Origin: a virus
Lineage: Duplodnaviria; Caudoviricetes
Strand: one strand, 5' to 3'
Virus record (IMG/VR): IMGVR_UViG_3300042564_002254
Coordinates: 1 to 58,119 of that record
DNA: 58,119 bases
Position numbers and translations under genes: made by a program. Shown here in pieces: positions 4,431 to 49,441 of this stretch; the stretch's first letter is position 1, and every line of letters begins with the position of its first letter. The notes under the pieces are model-generated. The model worked only from the letters and a program-made list of their open reading frames with translations. It was not told the DNA's origin and did not search any database.

Positions 4431-4847
4431 ATGGTAACAAAGTATGCTATGGATCTATTCAATGATCCTTTTTTTATTGGCTTTAACAGAGAGTTAAATC
4501 GCCTAAACACTGCACATAAAACAAACTCACAATCATATCCTCCATATGATCTTATCAAACTAGATGAAGATACATATAAGATTTCACTGGCTGTTGCTGG
4601 GTTTTCTAAGGAAGATATTGATGTGTCCGTAGACAATGGAACACTCATTATTAAGGGTGATATTGTTGAGGTTACAGATGCAGAAGTAGTTCATAAGGGT
4701 ATCGCAGGAAGAAAGTTCGTAAGATCTTTTGCCTTGGGAGAGTATATGGAAGTAACTTCTGCAGAACTAAAGGATGGCATGCTACATGTTCATGTAGTAC
4801 GAATTGTTCCTGAAGACAAGAAGCCTAAATCTATTAAAATTAAGTAG
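4431..4847 (+). CDS. hsp20: Small heat shock protein Hsp20 (IbpA-like)
   Basis: YPPYDL, LAVAGF, HKGIAGRKFVRSF and LKDGML alpha-crystallin motifs. Confidence 0.92.
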   Translation: MVTKYAMDLFNDPFFIGFNRELNRLNTAHKTNSQSYPPYDLIKLDEDTYKISLAVAGFSKEDIDVSVDNGTLIIKGDIVEVTDAEVVHKGIAGRKFVRSFALGEYMEVTSAELKDGMLHVHVVRIVPEDKKPKSIKIK

Positions 4848-4859
4848 TATAATAGATAA

Positions 4860-4974
4860 CATTCCGCTATGAGACTTTAAAAGGTTTTACAACGGATGCT
4901 CTTATGAGAAGAGAGTTAGCAGGAGTTGAACCTTCGTGGCTAATAGACCTGAGCAGTCGTCTATAAACTGCTCA
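4860..4974 (+). ncRNA. Candidate structured RNA ending in a pseudoknot
   Basis: TATAAT ~7 nt upstream; stems CATTCCG/CGGATG, CTCTT/AAGAG, TTAGC/GCTAA, then a pseudoknot copy; no ORF. Confidence 0.45.
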
Positions 4975-4976
4975 TT

Positions 4977-5009
4977 ATTCATCTAAAGTTCCTTATTTGT
5001 TTACCACTT
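4977..5009 (+). promoter_or_regulatory. Putative PHO box (11-nt direct repeats) upstream of pstS
   Basis: ATTCATC/GTTCCTT/GTTTACC at 4977, 4988, 4999, resembling actinobacterial GTTCACC repeats. Confidence 0.5.
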
Positions 5010-5048
5010 ATAACAAAACTTTATAGAATTGTTAGATATACTATAACT

Positions 5049-6083
5049 ATGAAACTTAAACTATCGCTCATCGCAGCACTCGCTGCGTCATTTATTTTTA
5101 TTCCATCAGCATCCGCTTCAGATCAAATTACTGGTAGTGGATCTTCCTTTATAGCAAACTACCTTGACGCATGTCGTATCACTTATGCAAAATCAACAGG
5201 AAATACAGTAACATATTCATCACTTGGATCTGGGGCAGGAAGAAACCAACTGTCCAATAAAATAATAAATTTTGCTGGTAGTGATACTCCATTTGCTTCA
5301 GGTGAGCAACAACCAGAGGGATATGTTTATGTGCCATTCATTGCTGGCCCAATTGCAATAATGTACCGTCTTGATGGATACAATAAGCCAATACAACTCA
5401 GTAAGCCTACACTTGCTAAAATTTTTGCGGGACAGATAACAAAATGGAACCATAAAGAAATAGTTAAAGACAATACTATCAAAAACATAAAGCCAAAGAT
5501 TCCATCTACACCATTAAAAATTGCATTTAGAGCAGATGGGTCAGGAACCTCTCAAATATTTACTGAGTATTTTAATGCGGTGAATCCTAATATTTGGAAA
5601 AAGCCAGGAAATAAAGATTTTAAGGCTGCATTCCCAGGAACAATTCCAATAACAGCACAAGCAGGATCAGGATCTCACGGTGTTGTAATGCTTACAAGAC
5701 AGATGAATGGTGTAATAACATACGCAGAATTATCTTATGCGTCTGGTTTAAAGGTTGCTTTGATAGAAAACTCAGCAGGGAAATTTATAAAACCAAGCGC
5801 AAAGTCAGCATCTCAATTTCTTAGTAATTTCCAGCGGGGAGATAACGGGATTATTAATGCTAATTATAATAACCCAAACCCATTAGCATATAACCTATCT
5901 GCCTTTAGTTATATCATAGCCTTTAAAGAAAAAACTCCTAAAAATACTGCAGTTAAAGAGTTCCTATCCTTTTCAATAGCAAATTGTACAAAGGATGCAG
6001 TTAGGCTAGGATATGCACCACTGTCTGGTCCTGCACTAATCCTTGCTAGAGAAAAAATATCTGAGATAAGTTCTGGAAATTAA
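5049..6083 (+). CDS. pstS: Phosphate ABC transporter substrate-binding protein PstS
   Basis: Signal peptide; GSGSSF, GSGAG, FAGSD and RADGSGT motifs. Confidence 0.92.
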   Translation: MKLKLSLIAALAASFIFIPSASASDQITGSGSSFIANYLDACRITYAKSTGNTVTYSSLGSGAGRNQLSNKIINFAGSDTPFASGEQQPEGYVYVPFIAGPIAIMYRLDGYNKPIQLSKPTLAKIFAGQITKWNHKEIVKDNTIKNIKPKIPSTPLKIAFRADGSGTSQIFTEYFNAVNPNIWKKPGNKDFKAAFPGTIPITAQAGSGSHGVVMLTRQMNGVITYAELSYASGLKVALIENSAGKFIKPSAKSASQFLSNFQRGDNGIINANYNNPNPLAYNLSAFSYIIAFKEKTPKNTAVKEFLSFSIANCTKDAVRLGYAPLSGPALILAREKISEISSGN

Positions 6084-6183: not shown

Positions 6184-6210
6184 CTAACATTTGGCGGTAT
6201 AATAATATCA

Positions 6211-6477
6211 ATGACTGACAAAGAGTTGGAAAGTTATAATAAGCAGCAGTATAAGAAGATGCTTGCTAAGATAAAAGAGGATTCTGGCTGCGTAGACTGT
6301 GGTATCGGCAACCATATTATTTTAGATTTTGACCACATAAGAGACAAGAAATATAATGTATCAAGGATGATCCACGATGGGTTTTCTTGGAAGGCTATAA
6401 AGAAAGAAATTGAAAAGTGTGAGGTGGTTTGTGCCAACTGCCACAGGATCAGGACTCATAATAGGCTTGCTGGTTAA
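6211..6477 (+). CDS. HNH endonuclease
   Basis: CVDC...DFDH...CANCHRIRTH; leaderless start after GGTATAAT. Confidence 0.85.
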   Translation: MTDKELESYNKQQYKKMLAKIKEDSGCVDCGIGNHIILDFDHIRDKKYNVSRMIHDGFSWKAIKKEIEKCEVVCANCHRIRTHNRLAG

Positions 6478-12968: not shown

Positions 12969-13022
12969 TTATCCACAGGTCAATATGATGGTTTGGTATA
13001 GTTATCCACAGGTTTATCCACA
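12969..13022 (+). promoter_or_regulatory. Three DnaA boxes
   Basis: TTATCCACA at 12969, 13002, 13014. Confidence 0.75.
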
Positions 13023-15462: not shown

Positions 15463-17262
15463 TAGCCTTAGTCCTATCACTGATAGCAAACGCTAATTGA
15501 TATGTAAGGGCGTATACTTCTACAAAAGCGTCTAAGCGGCCTTCAAGGTACTCATACTCTTCTCCCCGCAAAGCCTCTGACAACTTTGTCTCAGCCTCAT
15601 ACATAAGGTTCTTAAGTTCTCCGTGTAGGATGTCAGTTCCTGACTCTCCCATATCAATTAGTTTCTGTAGTCTTGGGTCTAGTGTTGTATTCATCATAGT
15701 TATATTGTAGCCTCTAGCACTGACAAAAAGTGGTAGCAGGCAAGAATCTGTCCAGTAGTGGAAACATCTTCTAACTCTAAGTCCTTGTACTCATCACAGT
15801 CAAGGTCATCATAGAAGCCCATTTGCTTCTGTAGTTCCTCAGAGTCTTGCTCCAAGGATAGCAGGTGTAGTTTAATATATTCGTGAAATGTGTTTAGGTC
15901 CATAGTATTAATTATACGGGTTCGTGTTGATTTTGACAACTCCCCTTGATGTGAAACTAATCACACTTGGCTGTACCATTGGCTCCTGAGCAGTACGAGT
16001 TACAAAGGTTTGGTAATCGCAGGTACAGGCGGGATCGAAGGAAGGCTCAACAGATGTAGTAATCTCTATAAGAGCATCACACCCTGTACAAACATAACTA
16101 TACTTGGTCCACATTATGAACATACTCCTTTGCCCACTCAGGCGCTTCGCCTTCTACCCAATCTAATTCAACATCTAAGTCTCCACCACCTTCAGGCCAG
16201 CCAGTTGTGACTACTAATTCTGTTCCATCCTCAAAGAAGATTTGCTCAACAATTGAGCGGTATGTGATTTCACGAGATTCAATGTTCATTAGTCCTCTAT
16301 GTATTCTACTGAGATGTTGCCCATTACTTCATCATACTTTACCATAGTATCTATGTCCTCAGCAAATCGAGCCATTAGATAATCTACTTTATCTTCCGTG
16401 CTCATATCAGGTGGACCGTATAGTTCAAACCCTATATCATTAGACATTGCATCATCTATATCAATGGTTTGTTCAATACTGATTCTAACTTTCATTCAAA
16501 GTGCCCCTCTGCCATTAGTCCTTCAAGTAGGTCTTTAGTTTTCCACAGGCTATTCCATAAGAATTGATCGTTCTCAGGATTAGTGGTCTTTAGCACGGAA
16601 GCCAAAGACTGAATCATATCATCAGCATCTACCTCTTCATATCCTACTAATGGCATTAGCCTACCTCTATCCCTGCGTAATGTGCGATAGTATTAAGAGT
16701 AGTGTGGATATGGCAGTCGCAAGCCTCTCCACCCATATTTTCCTCAAACTCTAAGTGAGAGTAATTGCTTTCATATATTTCATTGATTAGGTCGTCAATG
16801 GTATTCATTTGGTATGCCACTCACCTAATTCAGGGATAAACACATTTTCCTCTATATCCCATTGAGCGTCATCCCAACTAAGTTCATCAGTCATAATTTT
16901 ACCGATTTCATCTATGAAGGTTTGCATAACGGCTTCTGCGTGGTGTCTATTCTTAGCCTTGATATTTGTAATAGAGATAGCAAGGTCGCAAGAATAGTAA
17001 TCTGCATACATTTCAGGGTTTTCTATTTGGTCTGTTTCTAGGGTCATACATATTCCTTTTCGTAGGCTGGGTGGGATGTTACTACTAATTCTAGCATTTC
17101 GTCAGGGTATCTGTCAAGTACCCAATTAAGAGCCTGTCCAGCAGTCTTAAAGTCAGAGGCAGTGGTACTAGTACCATAACCATTAATGGTTGCTTCCCAG
17201 CAGTCAATACCACCAGGTGAGACGGAGTAGTTCATTTCATATATTGCCACTTGTTTTGTCAT
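15455..17262 (-). other. Run of about nine small acidic hypothetical early genes (15455-15697, 15700-15903, 15908-16123, 16098-16289, 16289-16495, 16805-17047, 17044-17262 and two shorter ORFs)
   Basis: Overlapping stop/start packing downstream of promoters at 15704 and 17269. Confidence 0.6.
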
Positions 17263-17440
17263 ATCTTAATTATAGCCTAGGGGTCTGACAAATGGAAGGT
17301 TTGGGGAAAAAATATTGCCTATCGTAAAGAAATTTTGGGAAAAATATCACCCTATCGTAAAGTTATTTTAGCAGAAATGTTTTGTGATATAGGTCACAGC
17401 CGACGTCCGAAATTTTTATGCATTGCATTTTTATTTATTG

Positions 17441-17514
17441 CGATCCGTACGGGACTTGAACCCGTGACCTCTACCGTGACAGGGTAGCGAACTAACCAAC
17501 TATTCTAACGGACC
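17441..17514 (-). tRNA. tRNA-Asp(GUC)
   Basis: CTACC-CT GTC AC-GGTAG anticodon arm; GGTTCAAGTCC T arm; GGTCCGT/ACGGATC acceptor. Confidence 0.9.
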
Positions 17515-17567
17515 AAATGGTGAGCAGTTTTTATTCTTACTCAGGAATCTTTATTTAGTTTTTTTTA

Positions 17568-18581
17568 TTATGCGTTAGTTAATTCACGCACAATCTTTAG
17601 TAAGCGATTTTTTTCTGCTGTGATAGCAGGGTCAAATCCGCTTGCGCTTGCAAGGATAGATTCGTTAGAACCACCACGAGCAGAGCGGTGCCAGTCAAGG
17701 CGCTCAGTAAGTGCATTAAACGCACCCCACGCATTACCAGCAATCATTCCGTTAAACTCGCCTGTGTAAATGTCGTTGATAACATCAACCTTGTTTTCCC
17801 ACTTCTTGAATGCACCCTTAGAATCCTTTTCAGGCTTTGGGTATGCAGCAAGAATAATGTCGTTAAACATCTTAGCAGAAACTTCCTGTTGAATCATAGC
17901 GTTAGCCATAACATCAAAAGAATCCATATACTTATGAGCAAGACCAAGAGTCTCACGAGCAACTTGAATCTTACCTTGTGCAGTCTGTGTATGGCGAATC
18001 TTGAAAGATTGCTTGATGCCATTTTTCTTGCGTGTAGTATTAAGTGCAAGATTGAGAGTGTTAGCGCACACAACACGAACGGGTGTTATGCTTGCTTGAA
18101 TAGCGATTGAGCCATCGTGTGATGTGTTGATAAGTAGATAAGTCTTAACCTTATCAGCAACGCCAGTAGGGTCAAGAACTGTTTCACGCTCTAGGGCTAG
18201 TGCACCGAATACAACACGACCGCCCTTGATTGAACCAGCAGTCTCCCAACGACCACCACCGTCAAGAATATTATCACCGAATGAAAATAAATCTTCATTC
18301 TGCATTGGGTGATAACGCTCACCAACGACACCAAGAATGTCGGTCTGTGTGTTATCTGTAGGATTAGTACGCAAGACATATTGATATGCCTTGTCGCTTG
18401 TTAGATGTGAGGGAGTTTCCAAATCCTCTAAGCGAACATTCCAACCGTTAAGGCTTGCAGCCTGTAGCATTTCTGCTGTTGTTTTTTCCTCGGTGAATAC
18501 TGTTCCCAATCCGTGCCAAGCAGGTTCACGGAATGATGCGAATGAGGTTTTGCCGTTTTGTGTTTCTAAATCGTGAGCCAC
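17568..18581 (-). CDS. DUF932 / TIGR03299 phage-plasmid protein
   Basis: PAWHGLG, ETAGS..GG, YLL..TSHDGS, TPVRVVCANT, RHT motifs. Confidence 0.88.
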   Translation of the reverse strand: MAHDLETQNGKTSFASFREPAWHGLGTVFTEEKTTAEMLQAASLNGWNVRLEDLETPSHLTSDKAYQYVLRTNPTDNTQTDILGVVGERYHPMQNEDLFSFGDNILDGGGRWETAGSIKGGRVVFGALALERETVLDPTGVADKVKTYLLINTSHDGSIAIQASITPVRVVCANTLNLALNTTRKKNGIKQSFKIRHTQTAQGKIQVARETLGLAHKYMDSFDVMANAMIQQEVSAKMFNDIILAAYPKPEKDSKGAFKKWENKVDVINDIYTGEFNGMIAGNAWGAFNALTERLDWHRSARGGSNESILASASGFDPAITAEKNRLLKIVRELTNA

Positions 18582-18804
18582 GATATTCCTTCTTTCTGTT
18601 GTGTTGATATTTCAAGTATAGCAGGACTGACTGACATATGCAAATCGGTATAGTTAATCATAGACAAATTGGACATTTCATAAAAGATCACCCCTAGACT
18701 ACGGCGTGTCGATTTGACAATGACTGGTCGGCGGGACGTCCAAAAATTTGAGGGAATTTATTGAGCAGTTTAGCGATATGCTCAGATCTGTTAGTAGCCC
18801 CCTA

Positions 18805-19242
18805 CTAAATATCTACTCTGTCCACACTGGATGATGAGTAAATTACTCCTTCAGGTTCTGATATAGAATCAAAATCAATTTCGTGAATTAAATTAATTGC
18901 TGACTCTTCATCTCGTGCATTGACTGTAATTGAATATAGAACTGTGACTTCCAATTCAAATTCTTTTGTTAACTCAAAACCGCAAATGTCTGCAATTTCT
19001 TGTCCTTCTGATTGATTAATGGTTCCATTTTCTAATGCTTCTAAGGTCCACTCTTGCATTTCATTACGCATACGGTTGCGCTCTGCAGACTCATCAGTGG
19101 AGCGAATAACTGTGTTGGCGTGTGCCGATTGCAATTGCTTTACATATTCCTCAAGTCGTGCAACATTTAGAGTTGCCTTAGCAAGAGAATCACGAAGAAA
19201 CTCTTCTGTTGCGTGTTCTACTGTGTTTGTTGTTTGGTCCAT
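18805..19242 (-). CDS. Hypothetical coiled-coil protein
   Basis: Own promoter at 19276 and RBS. Confidence 0.7.
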   Translation of the reverse strand: MDQTTNTVEHATEEFLRDSLAKATLNVARLEEYVKQLQSAHANTVIRSTDESAERNRMRNEMQEWTLEALENGTINQSEGQEIADICGFELTKEFELEVTVLYSITVNARDEESAINLIHEIDFDSISEPEGVIYSSSSVDRVDI

Positions 19243-19616
19243 TGGGGGCCTCTTTCTGTTTGTTGGTTTAATTTAATTATACTGGTTACCACTGACAAAT
19301 TTAGGTGAGCAGTTTATACACTTACTCAGGTGATAGAGAGGCAGGATCCTTCGTCTGGAACCCCTCTAATTATTTACTTAGAGAATGTATAGGTATAGGC
19401 TAGGTGCTGAGACTTATACTTAGCAATCTTATTTGCAGTTGCTACAAGTGTGTGTGCTTTTACGGCGTTCTTGTCTGCAAATTGTAGAATAGTTTTCTTG
19501 CCTTGTGTGATAGTGAAGTTGTACATTTTAATTCCATTTCTGTTTCGTAGGTTTGTGTGAGCAGTTTTATATCATACTCAGGATAGTTAGGAGAGACTCT
19601 GAGCCTCCTGCCCTAA

Positions 19617-20042
19617 TTATAGGTAGCGAGCCACCGCATTGTAGGTGGAAGTATTTACTACTTCCTCATCTGTCATCTTGAGGATACGAATTGCGTTAGC
19701 AATTTCCTCTTTCTGACTTTCATATTCGTGTCTGTGTAGAACTACGAAATCCTTAGTTGGCTCTGTTGGCAGTTCCTTTTCTGATACTGCTAGGTCAAAG
19801 TCAATGTTTAGGTTGTTGTTCCAAGAACGATATGAAGTGCGGAAGTTGGTTGCCTTCTTGATGTTTGCTACCGCATAGTCAATAAGTTCCTTTTTCCACT
19901 TCTCATAAGCCTTCTGATACTTTGCTTCATTTGCTTCTTGTGAAGTCCAATCAACTTCTAGTTTAGCAAGTGCGCCTTCTAGTGCCTTGATTACCTTTGG
20001 TGTTGCGATTTTAACTGAGATTGCTTTACCTCTTGTTGCCAT
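19617..20042 (-). CDS. Hypothetical protein
   Basis: Own promoter at 20076. Confidence 0.7.
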   Translation of the reverse strand: MATRGKAISVKIATPKVIKALEGALAKLEVDWTSQEANEAKYQKAYEKWKKELIDYAVANIKKATNFRTSYRSWNNNLNIDFDLAVSEKELPTEPTKDFVVLHRHEYESQKEEIANAIRILKMTDEEVVNTSTYNAVARYL

Positions 20043-20139
20043 TGGGTTTCTCTTTTCTTTTGTGGGTTAGTTTCTATTATAGGGGGTGGGTCTGACAAGT
20101 TGAGCCTTTTTAATTCTTGCTCAGGAATAAGTAATTAGA

Positions 20140-20307
20140 TTACTTTGCTGTCCAAGTTGTCCAGCGTGTGTTGCCATTTACATCTAACTTAACACGAACT
20201 GTTTCGCCTGTCTTGCTAGGTGCGATTTCCAAGATAGTGCCTGTTACCTTTGACTTCTGTGAAGTGTAGAGGTCTCCGACCTTATATGTTGCGGTTGCTA
20301 CTGTCAT
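20140..20307 (-). CDS. Small hypothetical protein (55 aa, SH3-like pattern)
   Basis: MTVATATYKVGDLYTSQKSKVTGTILEI...; promoter upstream, pseudoknot downstream. Confidence 0.6.
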   Translation of the reverse strand: MTVATATYKVGDLYTSQKSKVTGTILEIAPSKTGETVRVKLDVNGNTRWTTWTAK

Positions 20308-20656
20308 TTGTTTCTCTTTTCTGTTTGTTGGGCTGGTTTGCCTTATGTATTAAGTATAGCAAAAAATCTAAGAAATAACAAATCCATTTCCAAATAATCT
20401 CAAAATGTGAGACATTATCTATGTGATTTGAGTCACTAGGTTTTGTGCGTATAATACAATTTTAGCAGAAAAATCTCAAAAATACAAATCCTGCCTCAAA
20501 ACCTGGGGGTAATAAAGATCATATCGTAAACCCTGCGTGTCGGCTTGACAAATAGGGGTGAGGCCGACGTCCCGTTTTTCCAGGGATTTATCCACTCCCA
20601 CCTAAAATAGAAATCATTACTATTAGTATCATTAGTAAATAGAACCAAGGACTCAT

Positions 20657-21391
20657 TTACTTTTTACTCGCAGAGAAAAGAATATCACTCTTAGAGTATA
20701 CACATAACTTACAAGAAACGCAAGCGCTACCCTTAGTAGAGATAAGGGGAATTTGTTTATTATTCTCAGGACACTTAGCAGCAGGTCGCCCGATCATTTC
20801 TTTCATATCTGCTTGACCTATAGCAAAGTTCTTAGCAAGATAAGCAAGGCGAACACCTTGATTAATTTTTAAGTCAACACCAATTTTTACATTCTCACTA
20901 TCAGTGCTAAAGTAAAGAGACAAGTTAGGAATATCCTTAAGAATAAGAGCAGCGGACTTTACGCGGGTATATACCCAGAATTGAACATCCGAATGCTTAT
21001 CAATAACTACTTTCCAGGCATATGTATAAGTATCATTAAAGAAATCTCCGTCCCAGTGGATACGGAATAACATCGGTGCGTCTTTCTTGATACAGTCAGC
21101 CTTGAAATCAGAAATCATCTCATTAAGTAAGCGGACCATAGTTTCGCCGTCTGCGTCTTTAAGCAAGGACCAATTGTGTAGCAGATTAACTTTTACTGAG
21201 GGGAATACTTTTTCAAGTTTTCCTGCGTAGCAAACGCTTTCACAAACACTAGTGGCACCAGGGCACGAGAAAGCCTTTCCAGCAGGTAGGCCGAATGTAT
21301 TTGCGATTGCTGCTTGCTTTCCATTTTTTGTGACAAGGTTAGCCACCTTTCTATCATTAGATCTTTTTAGTTTAAGTGTATTAGTAGTCAA
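20657..21391 (-). CDS. GP88-family protein (Cys-rich, actinophage gp88-like)
   Basis: FGLPAG..SCPGA...C...CYA, FRIHWDGDF, W.YTR, C..C..C. Confidence 0.75.
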   Translation of the reverse strand: MTTNTLKLKRSNDRKVANLVTKNGKQAAIANTFGLPAGKAFSCPGATSVCESVCYAGKLEKVFPSVKVNLLHNWSLLKDADGETMVRLLNEMISDFKADCIKKDAPMLFRIHWDGDFFNDTYTYAWKVVIDKHSDVQFWVYTRVKSAALILKDIPNLSLYFSTDSENVKIGVDLKINQGVRLAYLAKNFAIGQADMKEMIGRPAAKCPENNKQIPLISTKGSACVSCKLCVYSKSDILFSASKK

Positions 21392-24300
21392 GGCCTAGAC
21401 TCATTTCTAGAGCAATGTCCTCATTATAGGTAGCGGACATTTCTTCTAGTAAGCAATGAGTACATTTTTCTTCATATGCGTCAACGGCATTTTCTTGACA
21501 AGAGGGGCAAGTTGTTGAGTAGTACTCATCAAACATTTCATCTTCATACATATTGGCCATTAGGGGGTCTCCTTTGTTTTCTTTAATTCTATCAGTTGGG
21601 ACTGACATTTCCTACGGTTGTAGGCTTTCTTTGAAGGCACGGCAGAGGCGGCATTAGAGCGTCTTAACTCCATTAGCCTGCGTAGTTCCTCATTTGTTTT
21701 CTTCATATAGCAATACTAACACACATCTGATAAAAATGTCAAATCTAACTCGTGTGATTAAAATCACAAAAAATTTTCCAGCGCCCAGGATCGGGGAAAA
21801 GAAAATAAATCATCTTAAAGATATTTTATAGGGGTTACTGGTGAGTATCCCCAAGTTATCCACAGACACGCCCGACCGCGACGTCCAAAAATTGCAGATT
21901 TTTATTTCTGCAATCTTGGTTTTTATTTATTCTTTTTCTATTTCGTCTAATAATTCCCAAAGTACTGGTTCTAATTCTAACGCTACTGCGTTTAATTTTT
22001 CTTGTAGTGTTTTCATTTATTTAACCAACCCTTCGAACCATTGAGAGAATCCACCATTAAAGAAAACTTCCTCACCTTTGTGATTAGTAAGCGTTGCACT
22101 TACTAATTCGGTTTCGTCGTTAACTTCTAGAATCTCTTTAACAAGATAAGTTTCGTTATTGGAAATAAATATTTTTCCAACATTGATTTTATTAATTAGT
22201 GATAGTGACATTAGTTTTCTTCTTTCATTAGTAGGTATGAGTTGTTTAGTGGGCGAGAATTGTTAGAGAACATAGCCTCTACCATAGCCTTATTTTTTTC
22301 TGATTGAGCAATTCTTTTTTCTTGTTGCTCTTTAAGAATTCTATCAAAGGTACTCATTAGTCAAAGTATCCAAATTCTCCTATACAAGAACCACAGATAC
22401 CTGAAAATTCTTGTTCGTGTTTTTCGCAATAAGCGACTTTCTTTTTTTCATTAGTGTTAGTCATTTTTGACCTAACCTTTCTTAGTGAGAGTTTCTCACT
22501 TTCTTTATACTGAAAGTCTACCACGCAGGGCTGACAAATAGCCAGCGTGTCGAGTGGTCTGACTAGTCAAAGATTTGTGATAAACATCACATAAGTTATC
22601 CACAGGCTGTGGGCGACACGCCCGACCGCGACGTCGCATTTTTATTCGGGGAAGTGAATAAAAATACTTTTAACTATTCCTCATAGTCAATAAAAACATA
22701 CAACGGAATCAAATCAGTATAAGCATACTGAGTAAATTCTTTTTCACCAAATTCGTTTTGAGTTTCTACATCATAGTTATCTCCAGTAGAATCACTTATG
22801 ATAGAAATAACCTGAACGATATCGTTGTCAATTTTTATTAGATCATCAATCATTAACTGACCTGGTGTTATATTGTCAGCGTGTAAAAGTTCCATATCTA
22901 ACATTGTATCAGACATTTAGTTCTCACAATCCGAGCATATGATATCGCCATCAAATAAGTGATAGCCTGTTTCCTCATCTACCTCTATTTTACAACTCCA
23001 ACACTTTAGCATTATTCCTCATCTCCATACTCATCTGCTGGGTCAATGAACCAAGATAAGTGGTGCTGCTCAACAATTGCCCAAGCGGGTGCAGTAGTGC
23101 GACCTTTATAGGTTATGCCTTCTGGAAGTGCAATTGGCGTATCGCTTTCTTCTGCATACATAGCATCAATAGCATCAATGCAAGGTTGTACCATAGAAAG
23201 TGGTACGGGCGGATAGTGATTACCTTGCAAGTGATACGCTATCTGAGTTTCTAAATCTAATACTGAGTCTGCTAATCCAATTACTGTTACGCTTCCCATT
23301 TACTTACCCCCTACAATTCCTGAGCGATACAATATTTTTGTATGCATCTTGCCTGACGGCTCTGATAAATTAACTGTTCGGTATTCATTAGCAAATCCGT
23401 GGTCAATAAACTTTTGATAAACTTCCACGGCAGATAAAGCATCAGCATAGCGACCAACCCAATTAGGCTTATTCTCGCTATCGTTAGTAGTAGTTACTGA
23501 GTATAGGTATTCGTTCATTAGTTAGCCTCTTTCGTAGTAAATAGTGCGCCTTCATTAAGTAAGCCCACTTCCAAGTTAAATAGTTCATCAGGTGTAGCAG
23601 ACTCCAAGTCTACCCACCCTGCGCCTTCGTTGTCAATTCTAAAAATCTCTATGTATCCCATTAGTTTTCTACCTTTACTGCTACTGTGCGACATACTGTC
23701 TTTCCAAAGTTATTAGGGCGCACTTCTACCAAATAACTTTCGCAACCCTGATACCATACGGCTTTAGGGTGTATCTCTGCTGAGATAATTTCTCCAGTTA
23801 AAGTATTGGAGCGATACTGTGTTCCTACTAGTAGGTGTTCTATTGTATAGACATTTGCTGACATTTGCCAACCTCTTTCTTTTTGTTGATAATTCTATCC
23901 TACCATAGGGGTCTGACATTTCTGCTAGACACGCCCAAAGTAAATAGACTTTCTTTTTCCTTACTATGTAAGTCTAGCCTATTAGACAGAAAATATCAAC
24001 TTACTAGCCAGTAAATCCAAATAGTGAGACGCTCAACCTATGTGATAAATCTCACAACACTAAGCCTGTGGATAAATCTGTGGGCGACACGCCCGACCGC
24101 GACGTCCCAAAAAATTGGAAGCAGTTTTAAATCTTGCTTAGGATTTTTATTTATTTTTTAAGTCGTTCAGTTCGCAAAGCAACTGACAGTCTGCGAATTT
24201 CTTTTTCTAATTTAACATTGCGTTGCCAAAATGCGATCATCATTCCAACAGAACCAGCAAGAGCAATTACAATTGCGATTAGTGTTCCAGTATCTAAAAT

Positions 24301-26553
24301 CATTACACACCCGCCAATTCTTTATAGCAAGCAATAGCAAATTTAGTTGCGTCAAATCTTGGATTATCCGTTTCGAACATTAGAGAAAATTCATCTACCA
24401 AATCAGCAAATAGCATTTCCCCTTGTTCGTCAAAAACAGAGGTAGCAAAATAATTGCTAAGAATTTCAGCAGTGGCAACATAGTCTTTACGGGTCATCAT
24501 TATGCGACCACCTTTAGAATTGCATAAGAACCATTTTTATTTATGTCCTCAATTACTGGAGTTAATGCAGGCACTAACAGTTCCTTGAGCATACCTTCAA
24601 GCATTGCAATTTGTGAGAGTTCATCTAGTTGCAAGAATCGTTGAGAAATTGGATGGGTTTCATCAAATTCGGTTACGAAGTTTAGAGAGTGATTTACTTT
24701 TATCATTTATTTTATTTCCTATTCTTTAGTTTGAGTTTGTTAGTAAGCGAGTGCCACGAATTGTGCCACTTAGACCGAGAGTATCGCAAGCGATTTTTAC
24801 AGATACGCCAACAGGTAATTGAGTTGGGTAAGTTGATACGAATTGAGCAACCGCACCTTTAGAGGCAAGGTTGATTTTTTTAGTAGAACCATTAAAGGTT
24901 TCTAGTGTTACAGTGTAAGTCATTTTTAGACTTCCTTTCATTTTTAAGTGATAAGACTATCCTACCACTAGGGGCTGACATTTTAGGGCATTTATTCGCT
25001 AGGCTCAATGTGATACTGGTCACATTTATTTGCTAGGCTCACTACCTTATTAGTCATTATTTAATTGTTATAGTAGCAATACTAGCAGACCAAACCCAAA
25101 AAGTCAAGGCGACACGCCGTATAATTAATGTGATTTGCGTCACACGGGACGTCAAAAAATCGCAGTTTTTATTCTGCGATCTTTTTTTATTTATTTATTT
25201 TTTTGTATAAGAAATCCCAAGCCTTACGGCATAAAAGAATTGACTTACAGTTATCACAACAGATAACTCCGTGAGGGTTTAACTCAAGGTCATAGATGTC
25301 TATGCTAGTGCTAACCGCACCGCATACTGATTTAATTGATACAAAAGTACTCATTTAGTGTAACTACCTTTCTTAATTGCCTCATCTAGCATTTTTGCTA
25401 AATCAGGGTGAATTCCTAATGCTGGATTTTCCCAGTAGGTTTCTAATTCTAATTTTTCTACAAAATCTTTCATTAGTACTACTCCCAACTTCTAGTAGTG
25501 GCATACACTACGCTATTGCGTGGAGTGTATTCTATTTCTACTAGATTAGTTTCTAGTATTGTACCTGTTAAGGCTACGAGGTCTAAGTAATTGTTAGCCT
25601 CAATTTCTGAGTTAAAGATAACTCCTAGACAAGTGCTAAACTCTTTCATTAGAGGATAGCGTGGGTTAGTATCTAACTCCACACGATAGGATAACTTGTA
25701 TCCTTTTACTTTTAGTGAATTCATTGTGAATTCCTTTCTTTATCAAGAACCTTTCTTGATTTTCTTTATACTAGTATTCTAGCAGGGGGTACTGACATTT
25801 AGGGGTGTTTTTCGGGCGTGTCGGAAAAGTATTTTTGTGATACTAATCACATAGGTTATCCACAAGTTATCCACAGGCACGTCCCATTTTTGCAGGGGAA
25901 TTAAATTTATTCTTTTACGAATAAATAAAATCCACTTGCTAAACAGATCATAGAGAACCAGAATAGTGCGTTACCACTTACAAAAAATGTTTCATAGAAA
26001 TTCATTATGAATAAATCCTTTCTCCGTAGTATTCGTCAAAATCTTTTATAGTCATTAGACCTTTATACTCATTACAGAAACCACAAAACTTGGTTTCGCT
26101 AGAATAGATTTTTTCACAAAAGCAACAAATTAGTTTAGTCATTAGTTAGACACTTTCCAATCTGTCCACATAGGTAGACGCTCAGGGTCGGTATCGTTAT
26201 ACCAACGCTCTATATTCTGCTCACAATTTTGGCAGAAAGTAAATTGCTCATCTCCTACATTAGAGATAGCAGATTTCATAGGGTTATGCTCAACGCATTT
26301 TGTTATTTCATTTAGTGTTATCATTTTTGACAACCTTTCTTTTTTTATTAGTTAATTTTATTTTATTAAGTTTTTTTATTTTATTAGCAGTAGCAATACT
26401 CGTTATCGCAAGCGCAAGAGCGTTGCTCTGGAAGTGGTAAGCACATTACGCAGGTTTCCCACGCTGTAACTCTTTCACACTTAGAGCATTTTACATATCC
26501 TAAGTATTCGTTCATTAGAGGGCTATTACCCTGCTCAAATATTCTGTTAGTCA
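21381..26553 (-). other. About 20 small hypothetical early genes in 1-5 gene operons (e.g. 21381-21560, 22017-22211, 22674-22916, 23012-23299, 23300-23518, 23661-23864, 24303-24500, 24500-24706, 24726-24923, 25479-25724, 26142-26333)
   Basis: Each operon follows a repeated promoter cassette and an AGAAAG/AGGA RBS. Confidence 0.6.
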
Positions 26554-26748
26554 TTTCTGACTCCTTTCTAGTTTAATCACTTTGATTAACTTTCTTTATA
26601 CTGTAAGTGTAGCAGGGGGGTCTGACATTTAGTAGGGTATAAAAGGTATAAATCGGACATTGTGATGCGTATCACATATGATACAAGTCACATTGAGGGG
26701 GTGCGCTGAGCAGGGCTTATGTAGCAGGTTATCCACAGGTTATCCACA
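21856..26748. promoter_or_regulatory. DnaA boxes in intergenic cassettes
   Basis: TTATCCACA at 21856, 22596, 25856, 25867, 26729, 26740; reverse copy at 24067. Confidence 0.75.
21865..24106 (+). repeat. Identical 21-mer GACACGCCCGACCGCGACGTC x3
   Basis: Copies at 21865, 22615, 24086. Confidence 0.85.
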
Positions 26749-27085: not shown

Positions 27086-27658
27086 GAGCAAATAACACTA
27101 GGCAACAAAAAAGGTATCAAATAGATATCGCATTAAAAGAAAGGTTCACTAAATATGAACACTATATATAACGAAATAGCAGAAGAGTTTGGCTCATCTG
27201 CACTATCAGTAAATAACCCTACTAACTATGCATTGACACTACGCCAATGCGCTATTCTAAACGATAAGTATGGGTTTGATAAGGCTAAGGTTATCGTTGA
27301 GCGATATATGGCATTATCTAAGGTAGGTAAGTAAATATGAATCCATTTACATCAATAATTGATTGGCTAGATGAGAATGCAGACTATGCCCCTATAGGTG
27401 CATTCATAGGGTTAGGTATAGCCATAGCCCTAGCCTTTATTTTCGGGGGTAACTAATGAGCCTACCTATTATACTAATAGCCTTGTCAGTGCTAGGCACT
27501 ATACTAGTCCTTATCCCTACCATACTAGATAAGGATAGTGAATACTAATATGCACATATATCTATGCTCACAATGTAGCACCCTTGCGGTAGTTACACAA
27601 AAAGGAAAACAAATAACTATTAACCCCTGCTTATGCACAAAAGAAAAGAGATAAATAA

Positions 27659-36211: not shown

Positions 36212-37624
36212 ATGGCTGCTGAATATATTGATAATACGGAAATTGGTTCTGGTATATACCCAACCAAGATACCTGGCTATGAAGATGCAGCCGACATTCA
36301 AGCGGCCTTAAGGCTTTACCACTATGGATCAACAACAATTCCTACAGAAAACACTCTCGGAACAGCAAGTGGAATTAACACAAAATCAATAGCAGGACAT
36401 TTTAAAGCCATAGATAACACCATTCAAACACTTGCAACAACCGCCTATGTTACAAACGCAATTGCTGGAGTTACAGACGAGTATGCTCAACTTGCTGGAA
36501 CAGGAATTGATTGGAATGCAGGGGCAAACAGGTTCGACCTTGACTATTTGTCAACAGTTATTGAAAAAACATCTAATTTTACTTTAGAAGCATCTAATGT
36601 TGGAAATACAATTCTTTTATCTACTTCTTCAACAATTGCCCTTACAGTCCCAGCAAATTCTGCCATTGCTTTGCCAATTGGTTATAAGGTTGATTTAATT
36701 GAAGTCGGTTCAGGAAGAACGACATTTACTCCAGGATCTGGCGTAACAATAAATAGCAAAAATGCACAAATGTATATTGACTCACAATATGGCAAAGCAA
36801 CACTTTTAAAGATTGCAGAAAATTCTTGGATTGCGTATGGAGATATATATGAAGGTGCTTCTACACCAACACCAACTCCCACTCCAGTAGCACCTACTCC
36901 AGTAGCACCTACTCCTGTAGCGCCTGTCCCTGTAGCACCTACGCCAGTAGCACCTACGCCAGTAGCGCCTACGCCTGTAGCGCCTGTCCCTGTAGCACCT
37001 ACACCTGTAGCACCTACACCTGTAGCACCTACACCTGTAGCACCTACACCTGTAGCACCTACACCTGTAGCACCTGCTCCTGTAGCACCTGCTTTTGCAA
37101 TAACAAGTACTTCCTCAACAACAAGTTCTGTAACATACTCTTGGGCTAACGCCCCAGCAGGAACTGTAAATTATAGTATTTTCTATGTTTATGATGATGA
37201 TACTCAATCTTCTGTAACTACTACATCATCATCATCTGCTACATTTAGTGGTCTTTCTTCAAGCACAACTTATGGAGTTTATGTTTCAGCAAGAAACTCA
37301 GATGGCACAACCTTGGCAAGCGCTTCTGCATCTATTACAACTCTTTCACCAACACCTACACCTGTAGCGCCTACTCCTGTAGCACCTACTCCTGTAGCGC
37401 CTGTCCCTGTAGCACCTACTCCAGTAGCACCTACTCCAGTAGCACCTACTCCAGTAGCACCTACTCCAGTAGCACCTACTCCAGTAGCGCCTGTCCCTGT
37501 AGCACCTACTCCAGTAGCACCTACACCTGTAGCACCTACTCCTACAGCAAATTGTGGACCATACCCATCAGGATATGCTCCAGGAGAGTGCATATGTGTA
37601 GGATCAATGTGGACTTGTTTTTAG
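36212..37624 (+). CDS. Tail-fibre-like protein with FN3 domain flanked by (PTPVA)n tracts
   Basis: Fibre domain shared with 46504 C-terminus; FN3 signature SW...Y...GL...T.Y.V.V.A.N; Cys-rich end. Confidence 0.75.
   Translation: MAAEYIDNTEIGSGIYPTKIPGYEDAADIQAALRLYHYGSTTIPTENTLGTASGINTKSIAGHFKAIDNTIQTLATTAYVTNAIAGVTDEYAQLAGTGIDWNAGANRFDLDYLSTVIEKTSNFTLEASNVGNTILLSTSSTIALTVPANSAIALPIGYKVDLIEVGSGRTTFTPGSGVTINSKNAQMYIDSQYGKATLLKIAENSWIAYGDIYEGASTPTPTPTPVAPTPVAPTPVAPVPVAPTPVAPTPVAPTPVAPVPVAPTPVAPTPVAPTPVAPTPVAPTPVAPAPVAPAFAITSTSSTTSSVTYSWANAPAGTVNYSIFYVYDDDTQSSVTTTSSSSATFSGLSSSTTYGVYVSARNSDGTTLASASASITTLSPTPTPVAPTPVAPTPVAPVPVAPTPVAPTPVAPTPVAPTPVAPTPVAPVPVAPTPVAPTPVAPTPTANCGPYPSGYAPGECICVGSMWTCF
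36865..37545 (+). repeat. Two 15-nt tandem repeat tracts encoding PxPVA (~14 and ~12 units)
   Basis: CCTACnCCwGTAGCr units at ~36865-37090 and ~37349-37545. Confidence 0.95.
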
Positions 37625-37664
37625 TTGATAACTTGTGCTATAATTAATAAAAATAGGAGGCATT

Positions 37665-38110: not shown

Positions 38111-38710
38111 ATGAACAAAGAAGAAATAGCACCAGGAATAGTTGTTTATAGTAATGTAATACCAAATTCAGAAAACTTATATAAAGAAATTGAAGAAGGC
38201 ATCAATTCTGCAAAAATAGAATGGCAGGGTGCATCTGTAAAAGAAGCAGATAATGTTAGGATTAACAACGAAACAAGAAACACCTTAACAATAGGGATAC
38301 CATATTTAGCGAAAATAGACAAAGAATTATCAACAAACTTTGTTGAAGAGTTTAACAAAAATTTAAATAATTTATTTTTTGAACATTTTGATTTAATTGA
38401 AAAAGACTATTTATCTTTTTATGGAATAAACTCAAATTGGCACGATCAATATGGAATTTTAAAATATGGTAAAGGACAGTTTTTTACTAATCATATAGAT
38501 GATCACCCAGACTATCATAGAAGAGTTTCTACTTTATATTACATGAACGATGACTATGTTGGTGGAGAAATAAACTTTCCTAGATTTAATTTAAGCATAA
38601 AGCCAATGTCAAATCAAATGATTATATTTCCTTCAACATATGTTTATAATCACTCAGTATCTCCAGTAATTGAAGGAGAAAGATACGCAGTAGTTAGTTG
38701 GATGCGATGA
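38111..38710 (+). CDS. 2OG-Fe(II) oxygenase (prolyl 4-hydroxylase-like)
   Basis: HID, YMNDDYVGGE, HSVSPV..GER. Confidence 0.88.
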   Translation: MNKEEIAPGIVVYSNVIPNSENLYKEIEEGINSAKIEWQGASVKEADNVRINNETRNTLTIGIPYLAKIDKELSTNFVEEFNKNLNNLFFEHFDLIEKDYLSFYGINSNWHDQYGILKYGKGQFFTNHIDDHPDYHRRVSTLYYMNDDYVGGEINFPRFNLSIKPMSNQMIIFPSTYVYNHSVSPVIEGERYAVVSWMR

Positions 38711-47815: not shown

Positions 47816-48625
47816 ATGGCAGCAGGTAAAAAAGCAGGTAAGAAGTCTCAAGCGTCTAACGACTTTCTAGAGCCATTAGCACCAACAAGCGTATCTGCTA
47901 CAAACGTAGGTACTGGTAGAGCATTTAATAATGGCTCAGCAACAGTTACCTTTTCTTTACCAGCACTTTCTCCTGCAGCCACATCCTTTACAGTAACTTC
48001 AAGCCCAGGGGGATTCACAGCCACTGGTGCCAGTTCACCACTTACAGTAACTGGTCTTCAGTCAAATACAGCATATACATTTACAGCAACAGCAACAAAT
48101 GCTGCAGGAACATCTGCTGCATCATCTGCCTCAGCATCAATTACTGCAACAACAGTTCCAGCAACACCTTCAGCACCAACCGTAACCACACAGGTTAACC
48201 AGGACAATGTTTCTTGGTCTGCCCCAGCAAACGGTGGTTCTGCAATTACTGGCTACACCTGGGCATCTTCTGATGCAAAGGGTGCAACAGTGGGTTCAGG
48301 AACTATAAGCGTTGCAGTTACTCAAGAAGGAGGAACTGCTCAGACATATACAGTTTATGCAACAAATGCTAATGGAAATTCTTTAACTTCAGCAGCCTCT
48401 AACTCTGTTACCACTACTCCTCCGTTCTTCCCACCGTTCTTCCCACCATTCTTCCCGTTCTTCCCACCATTCTTCCCACCATTCTTCCCGTTCTTCCCGT
48501 TCTTCCCACCGTTCTTCCCACCATTCTTCCCGTTCTTCCCACCATTCTTCCCACCATTCTTCCCACCATTCTTCCCACCATACTTCGCCCCACCTACATT
48601 CTCTGGCGCGATGGCATTCTTCTAA
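47816..48625 (+). CDS. Tandem FN3 protein with C-terminal (PPFF)n tail
   Basis: Two FN3-like domains (GL...TAYTF..TATN..G; SW.AP..GGS.ITGY) then Pro/Phe repeat. Confidence 0.8.
   Translation: MAAGKKAGKKSQASNDFLEPLAPTSVSATNVGTGRAFNNGSATVTFSLPALSPAATSFTVTSSPGGFTATGASSPLTVTGLQSNTAYTFTATATNAAGTSAASSASASITATTVPATPSAPTVTTQVNQDNVSWSAPANGGSAITGYTWASSDAKGATVGSGTISVAVTQEGGTAQTYTVYATNANGNSLTSAASNSVTTTPPFFPPFFPPFFPFFPPFFPPFFPFFPFFPPFFPPFFPFFPPFFPPFFPPFFPPYFAPPTFSGAMAFF
48419..48586 (+). repeat. Tandem repeat encoding 15 PPFF/PFF/PPYF units
   Basis: CCACCRTTCTTC and CCGTTCTTC units, in frame. Confidence 0.95.
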
Positions 48626-48727: not shown

Positions 48728-49441
48728 ATGTCGGTATATGATGAAAATTCAAATCCTTGGTTTACTAAGGATAGATCAGAAACTGCTATAAATAGATTTC
48801 CAACTAGGACAATAGAGGATAGTATTGTAGTTGAAAACCCAGCACTAGGGATAAATCTATATAGAAATGTTTTTTCAAAAGAAGATTCAGAAAGATATAT
48901 AAACACTCTTGAATCAAATCTTGATGGCACTAAAAAATATAAATGGTCAGAGGCTACAGTTACAAATTCTCCTAATCCAATTAAAAAAGCAAGAGACTGT
49001 GTAGATTTTAAATATAAACAAGAAAATCTTGGACCAAGAGATCAAGACAACTCTGAACTAATCGATTTACACGAAGAAATATATCAAAAACTTAAATACT
49101 GTGTAGACGATTACGCAAAATATTGGGGAATAAATGTTGTTTATTATGAAGCCTTTAATTTTGTAAAATATGAAGGAGAAGGAAAACATTTTAATATACA
49201 CGCAGACCACGGACCAGCCTATAACTGTACAGTTTCTGCTGTAATTTATATTAATGATGACTATGAAGGCGGAGAAATAAAATTTCCAAGACTTGATGGA
49301 TATGTTCACACTCCTAAAGTTGGGGATATTCTTCTTTGCCCATCTAATTATATTTATGAGCATGCTTCTTTGCCAATGAAATCAGGGGCAAAATATTGTG
49401 TTGTTGTAATGACTGATATAAATGAGTTAGGACACAAGTAG
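48728..49441 (+). CDS. 2OG-Fe(II) oxygenase
   Basis: HAD, YINDDYEGGE, HASLP..SG.KY. Confidence 0.88.
   Translation: MSVYDENSNPWFTKDRSETAINRFPTRTIEDSIVVENPALGINLYRNVFSKEDSERYINTLESNLDGTKKYKWSEATVTNSPNPIKKARDCVDFKYKQENLGPRDQDNSELIDLHEEIYQKLKYCVDDYAKYWGINVVYYEAFNFVKYEGEGKHFNIHADHGPAYNCTVSAVIYINDDYEGGEIKFPRLDGYVHTPKVGDILLCPSNYIYEHASLPMKSGAKYCVVVMTDINELGHK

Follow-up and report, generated by a model that had tools for sequence, protein, structure and literature searches.

A widespread and uncatalogued RNA pseudoknot at the ends of phage genes

Seven copies of the element in one phage genome

The virus record IMGVR_UViG_3300042564_002254 (Caudoviricetes) comprises 58,119 bases, all of which were analysed and which are referred to here as the window; its G+C content is 37%, it carries many small genes, and public lake-water metagenomes contain it at 86–96% of sampled words. 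Exactly seven copies of an element of about 28–32 nucleotides (nt) occur in it, all intergenic and all on the coding strand of the neighbouring genes. The consensus of the element, P1a-C-UGAGYA-N-P1b-N(1–3)AAAC-UGCUC(A), corresponds to an H-type pseudoknot, in which a helix P1 (arms P1a and P1b) and a helix P2 (arms P2a and P2b) are joined by the loops L1 (the single C), L2 (the junction base N) and L3 (the A-rich strand). An initial annotation had described seven compact, covarying pseudoknots at gene 3' ends, and all seven are found where it placed them, with the P1 pairs that it listed and with the compensated P2 of copy 6, which read as claimed. The copies and the genes adjoining them are the following (bit scores refer to the covariance model described below).

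4431–4847: gene of an HSP20-family protein
4943–4974, plus strand: copy 7; P1 of up to 6 base pairs (bp), AUAGAC/GUCUAU; L2 of 3 nt; P2 UGAGCA/UGCUCA; 38.3 bits
5049–6083, with copy 7 between this open reading frame (ORF) and the HSP20-family one: gene of a PstS-like phosphate-binding protein
17440–17514, minus strand: tRNA-Asp(GUC), directly 3' of copy 1
17521–17548, minus strand: copy 1; P1 AUUC/GAAU; 44.5 bits
Parts of copy 1: P1a AUUC 17548–17545; L1 C 17544; P2a UGAGUA 17543–17538; L2 A 17537; P1b GAAU 17536–17533; L3 AAAAAC 17532–17527; P2b UGCUCA 17526–17521
17568–18581, minus strand: gene of a DUF932 protein
18762–18788, minus strand: copy 2; P1 GAU/AUC; P2 UGAGCA/UGCUCA; 40.2 bits
19306–19332, minus strand: copy 3; P1 CAC/GUG; P2 UGAGUA/UGCUCA; 42.3 bits
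19558–19585, minus strand: copy 4; P1 UAUC/GAUA; P2 UGAGUA/UGCUCA; 44.0 bits
20101–20128, minus strand: copy 5; P1 AUUC/GAAU; P2 UGAGC/GGCUCA (the 'AAAAGGCUC' variant, with a terminal A·G); 37.2 bits
24119–24146, minus strand: copy 6; P1 AAAUC/GAUUU; P2 AAGCA/UGCUU, a compensated G-C to A-U change; 38.9 bits

The pattern CTGAGYA-N7-AAACTGCTC, allowed up to three mismatches, gives seven matches in the window, namely six real copies and a stray with three mismatches at 43752, and misses the plus-strand copy 7 because of its longer L2; in shuffled sequence the mean is 0.80 matches, and none of 100 shuffles reaches seven. A covariance model encoding P1 only recovers exactly the seven copies at 37.2–44.5 bits, with the next best match at 7.4 bits. 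The seven copies are not explained by chance.

In the copies on the minus strand the first P1 base follows a stop codon by 4, 11, 16, 19, 31 or 41 nt. The earlier description of six copies as lying just downstream of stop codons thus holds for the minus strand, while the plus-strand copy 7 is found 95 nt downstream of the HSP20-family ORF and 75 nt upstream of the PstS-like ORF. Copy 1 lies 3' of the DUF932 gene, whose stop is at 17568, and 6 nt separate the end of the copy from tRNA-Asp, in agreement with its earlier placement directly 5' of this tRNA. Copy 2 is 16 nt past the stop of ORF 18805–19242, with a small hairpin between, and is followed after 21 nt by a U-run and a GACGTC element and then by a promoter-like box (TGTCAG-N10-TAnnnT, see below) at 18615–18636. 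Copy 3 stands 41 nt past the stop of a 50-aa ORF (19374–19526), again with a hairpin between, and the box at 19276–19297 begins 8 nt downstream; copy 4 stands 31 nt past the stop of ORF 19617–20042 and 31 nt before the start of ORF 19374–19526; copy 5 stands 11 nt past the stop of a 55-aa ORF (20140–20307), 3 nt before the beginning of the box at 20076–20097. In copy 6 the L1 C is exactly 9 nt past the stop of a 50-aa ORF (24151–24303), and CCAAUUUUUU and then a GACGTC element follow, a U6 starting 4 nt after P2b; this is the only window copy with a U-tract behind it. Copies 1, 2, 3, 5 and 6 each close a unit opened by a TGTCAG-N10-TAnnnT box, and copy 4 divides two genes of one unit. The downstream neighbours are tRNA-Asp, the DUF932 gene, small ORFs and pstS. 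The HSP20-family and PstS-like genes, which adjoin each other (4431–6083) with copy 7 between them, look like host-derived accessory genes.

Evidence for the fold and its occurrence among phages

For the study of the fold, IMG/VR was scanned with CTGAGYA-N7-AAACTGCTC, which is silent on P1, and the counts given here are those of the matches listed, which come from at least 120 contigs. Among them, a P1 of at least three contiguous bp directly flanking the loop is present in 142 of 146; a variant with 12-nt spacing also exists, for which the corresponding N8 pattern gives such a P1 in 49 of 121 matches. In the 146 non-identical aligned copies each P1 pair is represented by three to six standard pair types, the third pair, for example, by G-C in 56, C-G in 35, A-U in 31 and U-A in 24 copies, and 93.6% of the P1 cells pair, against 77.8% when the sequences are shuffled and 24–41% when the partners are slid.

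As P2 is fixed by the search pattern, it was examined in a separate test that required only a C at L1, an adjacent P1 and AAAC. Under these conditions, which do not constrain the P2 arms, 230 candidates have five out of five P2 pairs, compared with nine when the 3' arm is shifted by 9 nt. At least 12 compensated P2 variants occur among the 230, including AAGCA/UGCUU (9), GGACA/UGUCC (6), GGGUA/UACCC (5), AGGCA/UGCCU (3), GAGUA/UACUC, GGCCA/UGGCC and others. In an alignment of 139 hits selected by the model, both partners vary in three of the six P2 pairs, with few uncompensated cells; the recurrent exception is the 'AAAAGGCUC' form with its terminal A·G, which window copy 5 has too.

The stability of the two helices is different. 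P2 alone is predicted at –2.4 to –6.3 kcal/mol in the window copies, whereas for the six copies on the minus strand P1 alone is predicted at –1.3 to +0.6 kcal/mol and is nevertheless maintained. The strict upkeep of so weak a helix suggests that P1 forms together with P2 in a cooperative fold, and from the geometry and the weakness of P1 the two helices, which stacked on each other amount to 9–12 bp, would be present simultaneously. Furthermore, L2 accepts insertions, with an extra hairpin or additional bases between P2a and P1b at three loci (L177:6624-6675, L183:3079-3145 and L141:9986-10030), and the hairpins inserted in two of these (L177 and L183) suit an RNA junction rather than a DNA site of fixed spacing. 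At P2, U·G is tolerated in 34 of the 146 copies, U pairs with A in all arm variants, and no C·A is seen; the fourth P1 pair, with 14 G·U against 12 A·C, does not discriminate between the strands. The weakness of P1, the insertions in L2 and the presence of U·G without C·A point to a pseudoknot of the sense-strand RNA. With two helices, each of which has a strand in the loop of the other and both of which covary, the element is, as far as comparison of sequences can tell, an H-type pseudoknot, and that the fold is real can be regarded as virtually certain.

Carriers of the knot include actinophage-like genomes from lakes, crAss-like phages of the gut and well-known temperate phages of Lactobacillus and Staphylococcus. 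In the Lactobacillus phages KC5a, phi jlb1, CR191 and phiAQ113 it scores 38–40.6 bits, and in KC5a it lies between the protease and the scaffold gene. Many Staphylococcus aureus phietaviruses carry it as well, in phage B236 at 21308–21344 between the minor head and the scaffold gene, and a placement at scaffold genes recurs at two further loci (L273 and L325). In the crAss-like phage cr124_1 (L371:1459-1532) a tandem pair of knots stands just before tRNA-Val; the first of the pair is a CUUAGCA/UGCUA variant, with U-A where G-C is usual, and the model scores the second only. In contigs from bacterial and archaeal genomes, the bins of which may contain phage contigs, P1 is present in 54 of 129 pattern matches, and the titles of these contigs name Bacillota, Saccharibacteria, Aminicenantes, Actinomycetota, Bacteroidota, Chloroflexota, Cyanobacteriota, Thermodesulfobacteriota, Pseudomonadota and Atribacterota. 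Four complete bacterial genomes have one to three copies each, a number that indicates an element of mobile DNA and not of host chromosomes.

Position relative to genes and possible function

In the retrieved loci, around which the genes are crude ORF calls, 261 of 306 copies are intergenic, and the upstream gene is on the same strand in 222 of 247 cases. The distance from the stop codon to the L1 C is 0–8 nt in only 6 of 272 copies and then 9 nt in 38, 10 nt in 24, 11 nt in 15, 12 nt in 15 and 13 nt in 13, with a long tail; it has, in other words, a hard floor at 9 nt. In 14 additional copies the upstream ORF ends in the UGA of the knot itself. About nine bases of the message are covered by the ribosome 3' of the A-site codon, so that the knot appears to be packed against, and not inside, a ribosome that is terminating upstream. 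Of 78 copies in long intergenic gaps, 39 lie close to the stop codon of the gene before them and 7 close to the start codon of the gene after them. The stop codons near the knot are TAA in 78 cases, TAG in 26 and TGA in 11, a distribution that differs from a six-frame background itself full of false ORFs and is therefore given no weight.

The genes that precede the knot include those of DUF932, ArdA (two cases), DUF2958, HSP20 and several further proteins. DUF932 homologues with about 51% identity to the window protein are found in Streptomyces and other actinophages, and the knot follows 35 of 41 DUF932 homologues; three of the other six have a strong hairpin there, one of which is a textbook terminator. 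The knot is absent from Streptomyces phage NootNoot despite a 51%-identical DUF932 gene. On the downstream side, 27 copies have a tRNA that begins 3–14 nt behind them (mostly tRNA-Asp, and also Arg, Ser, Asn, Gly and Gln), several of these cases coming from related phages, while among 149 tRNAs none has a knot within 50 nt after it. The base after P2b is A in 66% of the copies and the next two positions are C-rich; at positions +2 to +9 the tail is U-rich, with 4–11% G.

Taken together, hundreds of copies and their anchoring to stop codons bear out the earlier view of a compact pseudoknot at gene 3' ends. The knot is very probably an element of gene ends that acts at the level of RNA, and the best explanation of its position would be that it forms part of the 3' untranslated end of the upstream gene. 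As to function, the reading preferred here, to which a probability of roughly 0.4 can be given, is that the knot would mark, protect or form the end of the upstream message; blocking of exonucleases, leaky termination or an effect on message stability could each be the activity behind it. The element would be a portable, transcribed RNA module of about 30 nt in which P1 is a weak helix of 3–6 bp with free sequence, the single C of L1 crosses to P2, P2 is a conserved helix of 5–6 bp (UGAGYA/UGCUCA), one junction base after P2a forms L2, and the A-rich strand of L3, ending in AAAC, runs back along P1. Starting at the edge of the footprint of the terminating ribosome, it would act as an RNA "full stop", a compact, mechanically tough and cooperative fold that survives translation termination a few bases upstream, sets the 3' end of the upstream message and guards it against 3'-to-5' exoribonucleases. 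Any of three routes may produce the 3' end itself just past the knot: RNase P may cut at a tRNA next to it, the tail, poor in G and rich in U, may be cleaved, or, in copies with a U-tract behind them, transcription may end by weak intrinsic termination. That knot and strong hairpins share the slot behind DUF932 homologues indicates that they are equivalent there, in favour of a role at the message end.

Several points weigh against this reading. The loci were retrieved with a pattern derived from the window (CUGAGYA...AAACUGCUC), so the conservation of P2, L1 and L3 is partly a matter of ascertainment and is overstated, and because many of the loci come from phages related to this one, the copies are only partly independent of each other. 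A plain hairpin rich in G+C would be as good a shield for a 3' end, and protection alone leaves the strict conservation of the L1 C, of AAAC and of the P2 sequence unexplained, for which a specific partner (RNase P, another universal factor or a protein) or a chemistry of its own is possible. Hairpins between the stop codon and the knot, for which the proposed mechanism has no need, are mildly enriched (128 of 277 copies against about 94 of 277). The Lactobacillus and Staphylococcus copies, which precede scaffold and capsid genes and are accompanied by a second hairpin, fit a role as 5' leader too, and this form may serve the downstream message as well. In several phages of Firmicutes (phi jlb1 and the prophage locus L369 among them) a canonical terminator stands directly before the knot, with the consequence that only read-through transcripts would carry it. 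Finally, the RNA-labelled runs, four in number and covering 0.06 of the region, consist of assembled contigs of relatives (90–95% identity), which cannot show where transcripts start or end and from which no conclusion on expression is drawn.

One rival explanation is a terminator or attenuator of the pseudoknot type, in which P2 would serve as the hairpin, propped by P1 and the A-rich strand, and the transcript would be released at a U-tract. Like intrinsic terminators and 3' stabiliser hairpins, the knot stands after stop codons and before the next promoter, in a slot that is interchangeable with strong hairpins, one of them the canonical terminator behind a DUF932 homologue. A U-tract begins within 0–3 nt after 80 of 277 copies (29%), against 16 and 24 of 277 at control offsets, and U5–6 follows all six copies of Lactobacillus phages and prophages and the copy of S. 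aureus phage B236. In the window, promoter-like boxes come directly after copies 3 and 5, and copy 6 holds the same position before a U-run and GACGTC element as the ordinary terminator hairpins at 21891–21914 and 25159–25180. On the other hand, 197 of the 277 copies have no U-tract, P2 alone is weak, and the knot has a conserved sequence in place of the free, GC-rich sequence of a terminator hairpin. The polymerase must, moreover, read through the knot before the 27 closely following tRNA genes, which have no space for a promoter; in the window, tRNA-Asp(GUC) must for the same reason be transcribed through copy 1. The codirectional genes beyond the knot in Staphylococcus and Lactobacillus phages include those for scaffold and capsid. 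With tRNAs and essential late genes directly downstream, an efficient terminator is unlikely, and termination as the general role of the knot seems improbable. Among the four roles that had been suggested initially (exonuclease block, non-canonical terminator, processing signal, protein- or ligand-binding element), the data favour an end-protecting element or a leaky terminator; they speak against efficient termination and are compatible with a processing signal or with a site for a protein.

An aptamer, that is, a site for a protein or small ligand that regulates neighbouring genes, would account for the strongly conserved, unpaired C of L1 and for the AAAC present in every aligned copy, although this loop conservation is partly built in by the search pattern. 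The architecture resembles that of the preQ1-I aptamer, an H-type knot of about 34 nt with an A-rich 3' strand; there is no Rfam match to it (RF00522) at E≤10 over 17400–20200, and the copies follow the stops of unrelated genes and do not lead queuosine genes. Occurrence in many phyla and a pseudoknot are, according to Weinberg et al. (2017; PMC5737381), traits typical of RNAs with demanding functions. A regulatory role is assumed for the GP20-b leader before phage scaffold genes, to which the KC5a knot has some likeness (see below). Against an aptamer stand the seven copies behind unrelated genes of one genome, the anchoring to the upstream stop and not to the downstream start, and the one-base L1 and L2, which would leave little space for a ligand pocket. 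The carriers also differ widely, from a lake phage whose tail genes are siphovirus-like to a Lactobacillus myovirus and to crAss-like phages, and a dedicated protein shared by all of them, for which no search was made, seems unlikely. An aptamer is accordingly considered an improbable explanation too.

A processing signal is quite unlikely as well, even if it would explain through a universal host enzyme why the same sequence occurs in phages of some ten phyla. Stacked P1 and P2, at about one helical turn, could imitate the acceptor and T arm of a tRNA and be cut by RNase P, or by RNase E, Y or III alongside, so that long phage messages would be split. The tRNA-like arm of TYMV offers a precedent in which a 3' strand pairs into a hairpin loop, giving a stacked helix that is followed by A-C-C-like bases; behind the knot, the A and the C-rich pair recall this arrangement, ACCA is the commonest tetramer (19 of 277 copies), tRNAs often adjoin, and the G-poor, U-rich tail is like single-stranded cleavage sites. 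In contrast to TYMV, CCA follows only 7% of the copies, many of them in related phages, and is thus not conserved. Neither is there a mimic of the T loop, and no knot copy is called a tRNA by ARAGORN or by the Rfam tRNA model, the four window tRNAs found by both lying clear of the knots.

It is very unlikely that the element acts as DNA, be it as a promoter, as a site bound by a protein or as a joint at which gene cassettes recombine, or that it is a self-cleaving ribozyme of very small size. Contigs of relatives have joints at copy edges (17510 to 19559, 24145 to 18791, 20127 to 17588), and small ribozymes are common between phage genes. The polarity of the knot, however, follows that of the genes, wobble pairs fit the sense strand only, a floor of 9 nt from stop codons would be meaningless for DNA, and the hairpins inserted in L2 break any fixed spacing; the sides of the joints are short (23–32 nt), have 90% likeness and are flagged unreliable, and any conserved repeat of 25 nt would attract recombination. 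The "promoter" annotated at the knot of phage B236 is a BPROM prediction only, and a promoter was rejected on the grounds that a conserved –35 element is lacking, that the two helices covary and that L2 tolerates insertions. None of the ribozyme families in Rfam matches, and a resemblance to the hammerhead, pistol or twister was rejected for this reason. The contigs of relatives join different copies or lack one (a fourth joint is 19380/19305), which is a weak hint that gene cassettes may be swapped at the knot.

An action on the ribosome terminating upstream (read-through, frameshifting, stalling, or a block of sliding or re-initiation) would suit the spacer of typically 4–8 nt between stop and P1, the 9-nt floor, which coincides with the 3' boundary of a ribosome whose A site is occupied by the stop codon, and the short L1 and A-rich L3 along P1 as in luteovirus and retrovirus frameshift knots, but is highly improbable, as the distances spread over 9, 10, 11, 12 and 13 nt and far beyond with no three-base rhythm (4 to 95 nt in the window), the knot contains UGA and often UAA so that no extended frame is kept, and no slippery sequence is visible by eye in 64 listed copies 8–10 nt from a stop.

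The preferred reading, a role at the end of the upstream message, can be given a more general form, which is possible although doubtful. Phages of at least ten bacterial phyla would share one protein-independent triplex pseudoknot of 30 nt as a universal "full stop" of messages, which at the edge of the terminating ribosome would halt 3'-to-5' exoribonucleases and, at a U-tract, RNA polymerase, and which would as a side effect provide a common recombination joint for cassettes. If this were true, bacterial viruses would have in the knot an equivalent of the exonuclease-resistant RNAs of viruses of eukaryotes, and the knot would be among the smallest and most widespread structured RNA modules of phages, by which the stability and boundaries of single cistrons could be set in a simple, host-independent way; it would also bear on how phages adjust the expression of their capsid, accessory and anti-defence genes. 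As an insulator or stabiliser of 30 nt it may be of use as a part in synthetic biology, and it would be a tractable model for tough RNA folds that meet ribosomes, polymerases and nucleases.

Relation to known RNAs and further features of the genome

The window copies match no family of Rfam 15, neither at the gathering level over the whole window nor at E≤10 over 17400–20200, which contains five copies; the initial annotation had likewise not recognised the family, and the knot as such is absent from Rfam despite its wide spread. The closest entry is GP20-b (RF03003), the full model of which (1–62) aligns to the KC5a knot and the next hairpin at 20.5 bits, with a gathering score of 36.2; at E≤10 it has no match on window positions 17400–20200, phage B236 or crAss-like cr124_1. 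GP20-b is a candidate cis-regulatory motif that precedes GP20/scaffold genes of phages (Weinberg et al., 2017, cited in PMC10690425), and GP20-a and GP20-b are treated as candidate regulators of GP20 in PMC10690425; the term GP20 has no occurrence in the main text of PMC5737381. In the printed consensus of GP20-b the first hairpin corresponds to P2, with the loop GgCgUAAAAg, and the 5' flank GuC could pair with the loop bases GgC in the manner of P1. The knots of Lactobacillus and Staphylococcus phages (KC5a, B236, L273 and L325) also precede scaffold genes, and a second hairpin is present after the Lactobacillus phage copies. Among the differences, P2 of the model is CCGCA/UGCGG, and the window copies have no second hairpin with A-rich tail, being directly followed by a promoter-like box, a tRNA, a U-run or a start codon; these copies are, moreover, dispersed seven-fold after genes and neither lead one gene family nor stand upstream of GP20/scaffold genes. 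GP20-b may thus represent the same design with another P2 sequence, which suggests that this orphan motif could contain a pseudoknot of the kind described here.

No description of the motif was found in the literature, including that on exonuclease-resistant RNA in phages, as far as its text was available, although it may be listed unnamed among the 10,006 further unnamed viral RNA candidates reported in PMC10690425 or among the motifs of Weinberg et al. (2017). The xrRNA of flaviviruses and the coremin motif, exoribonuclease-resistant RNAs of eukaryotic viruses, are similar in being small, knotted viral RNAs thought to block mechanically, and frameshift knots have been linked with Xrn1 resistance (PMC10321173). 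There is no match in sequence or fold between these structures and the knot, and they stop the 5'-to-3' enzyme Xrn1 and protect downstream RNA, whereas the anchoring seen here points to protection of upstream RNA from 3'-to-5' enzymes. The element can consequently be described as a well-supported, widespread and uncatalogued phage RNA pseudoknot at gene ends, the function of which is inferred.

Compact H-type pseudoknots are also used in recoding, as in BWYV, ScYLV, PEMV, SRV-1, MMTV and the read-through knot of MuLV. These have the same order of parts (S1, a short L1, which is one C here, S2, one junction base and an A-rich strand along S1), a similar size of about 28–34 nt and a position a few bases 3' of the A-site codon. 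The phage element differs in having no slippery site and no conserved extended frame, and in its many copies behind unrelated genes of a bacterial DNA phage.

By megablast of positions 17000–25000, the window has no match among deposited phages and hence no close relative among them at the DNA level. Besides the genes already named, a GP88-family protein and a DNA methylase are recognisable. The two repeated motifs of the intergenic regions are located as follows.

6199–6220, 15704–15725, 17269–17290, 18615–18636, 19276–19297, minus strand: TGTCAG-N10-TAnnnT boxes
20076–20097, 21586–21607, 22515–22536, 23842–23863, 23897–23918, minus strand: TGTCAG-N10-TAnnnT boxes
24959–24980, 25776–25797, 26606–26627, minus strand: TGTCAG-N10-TAnnnT boxes
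27484–27505, plus strand: fourteenth TGTCAG-N10-TAnnnT box
17402–17407, 18735–18740, 20566–20571, 21880–21885, 22630–22635, 24101–24106, 25148–25153: all seven GACGTC sites of the genome

Thirteen of the boxes are found in the leftward block from about 27 kb to 6 kb just before ribosome-binding sites, and most of the fourteen directly precede those of leftward genes. In sequence and in the 11-nt spacing of the hexamers the box resembles the PafBC-dependent RecA-NDp promoter of actinobacteria, a likeness that would point to an actinobacterial host.

Every GACGTC site sits in one repeated intergenic element, in which, read on the minus strand, GGACGUC and GC-rich bases come after an A/U-run; the sites are about as numerous as expected by chance, but their sequence context is not chance-like. 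The hairpins at 21891–21914 and 25159–25180 have A-rich loops and look like two-way intrinsic terminators, and their loop and 3' arm (…AAUAAAAACUGC…) resemble L3 and P2b of the pseudoknot, as if one were derived from the other. Ten exact, DnaA-box-like TTATCCACA sites, several of them paired, occur within early intergenic cassettes together with TGTGAT...ATCACA inverted repeats, in the following regions.

12969–13022: TTATCCACA / inverted-repeat region
21856–21864: TTATCCACA / inverted-repeat region
22596–22604: TTATCCACA / inverted-repeat region
24067–24075: TTATCCACA / inverted-repeat region
25856–25875: TTATCCACA / inverted-repeat region
26729–26748: TTATCCACA / inverted-repeat region

A coding repeat of 45 nt (approximately YxNDDYEGGE) occurs nine times in consecutive rightward ORFs, at 38540–38584 and at eight sites from 49247 to 56396, which suggests an array of paralogues beyond the tail genes. 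In-frame tandem repeats are present in ORF 36212–37624, which is weakly similar to minor tail proteins (period of 15 nt, 36795–37639), and in ORF 47816–48625 (period of 9–12 nt, 48389–48609).

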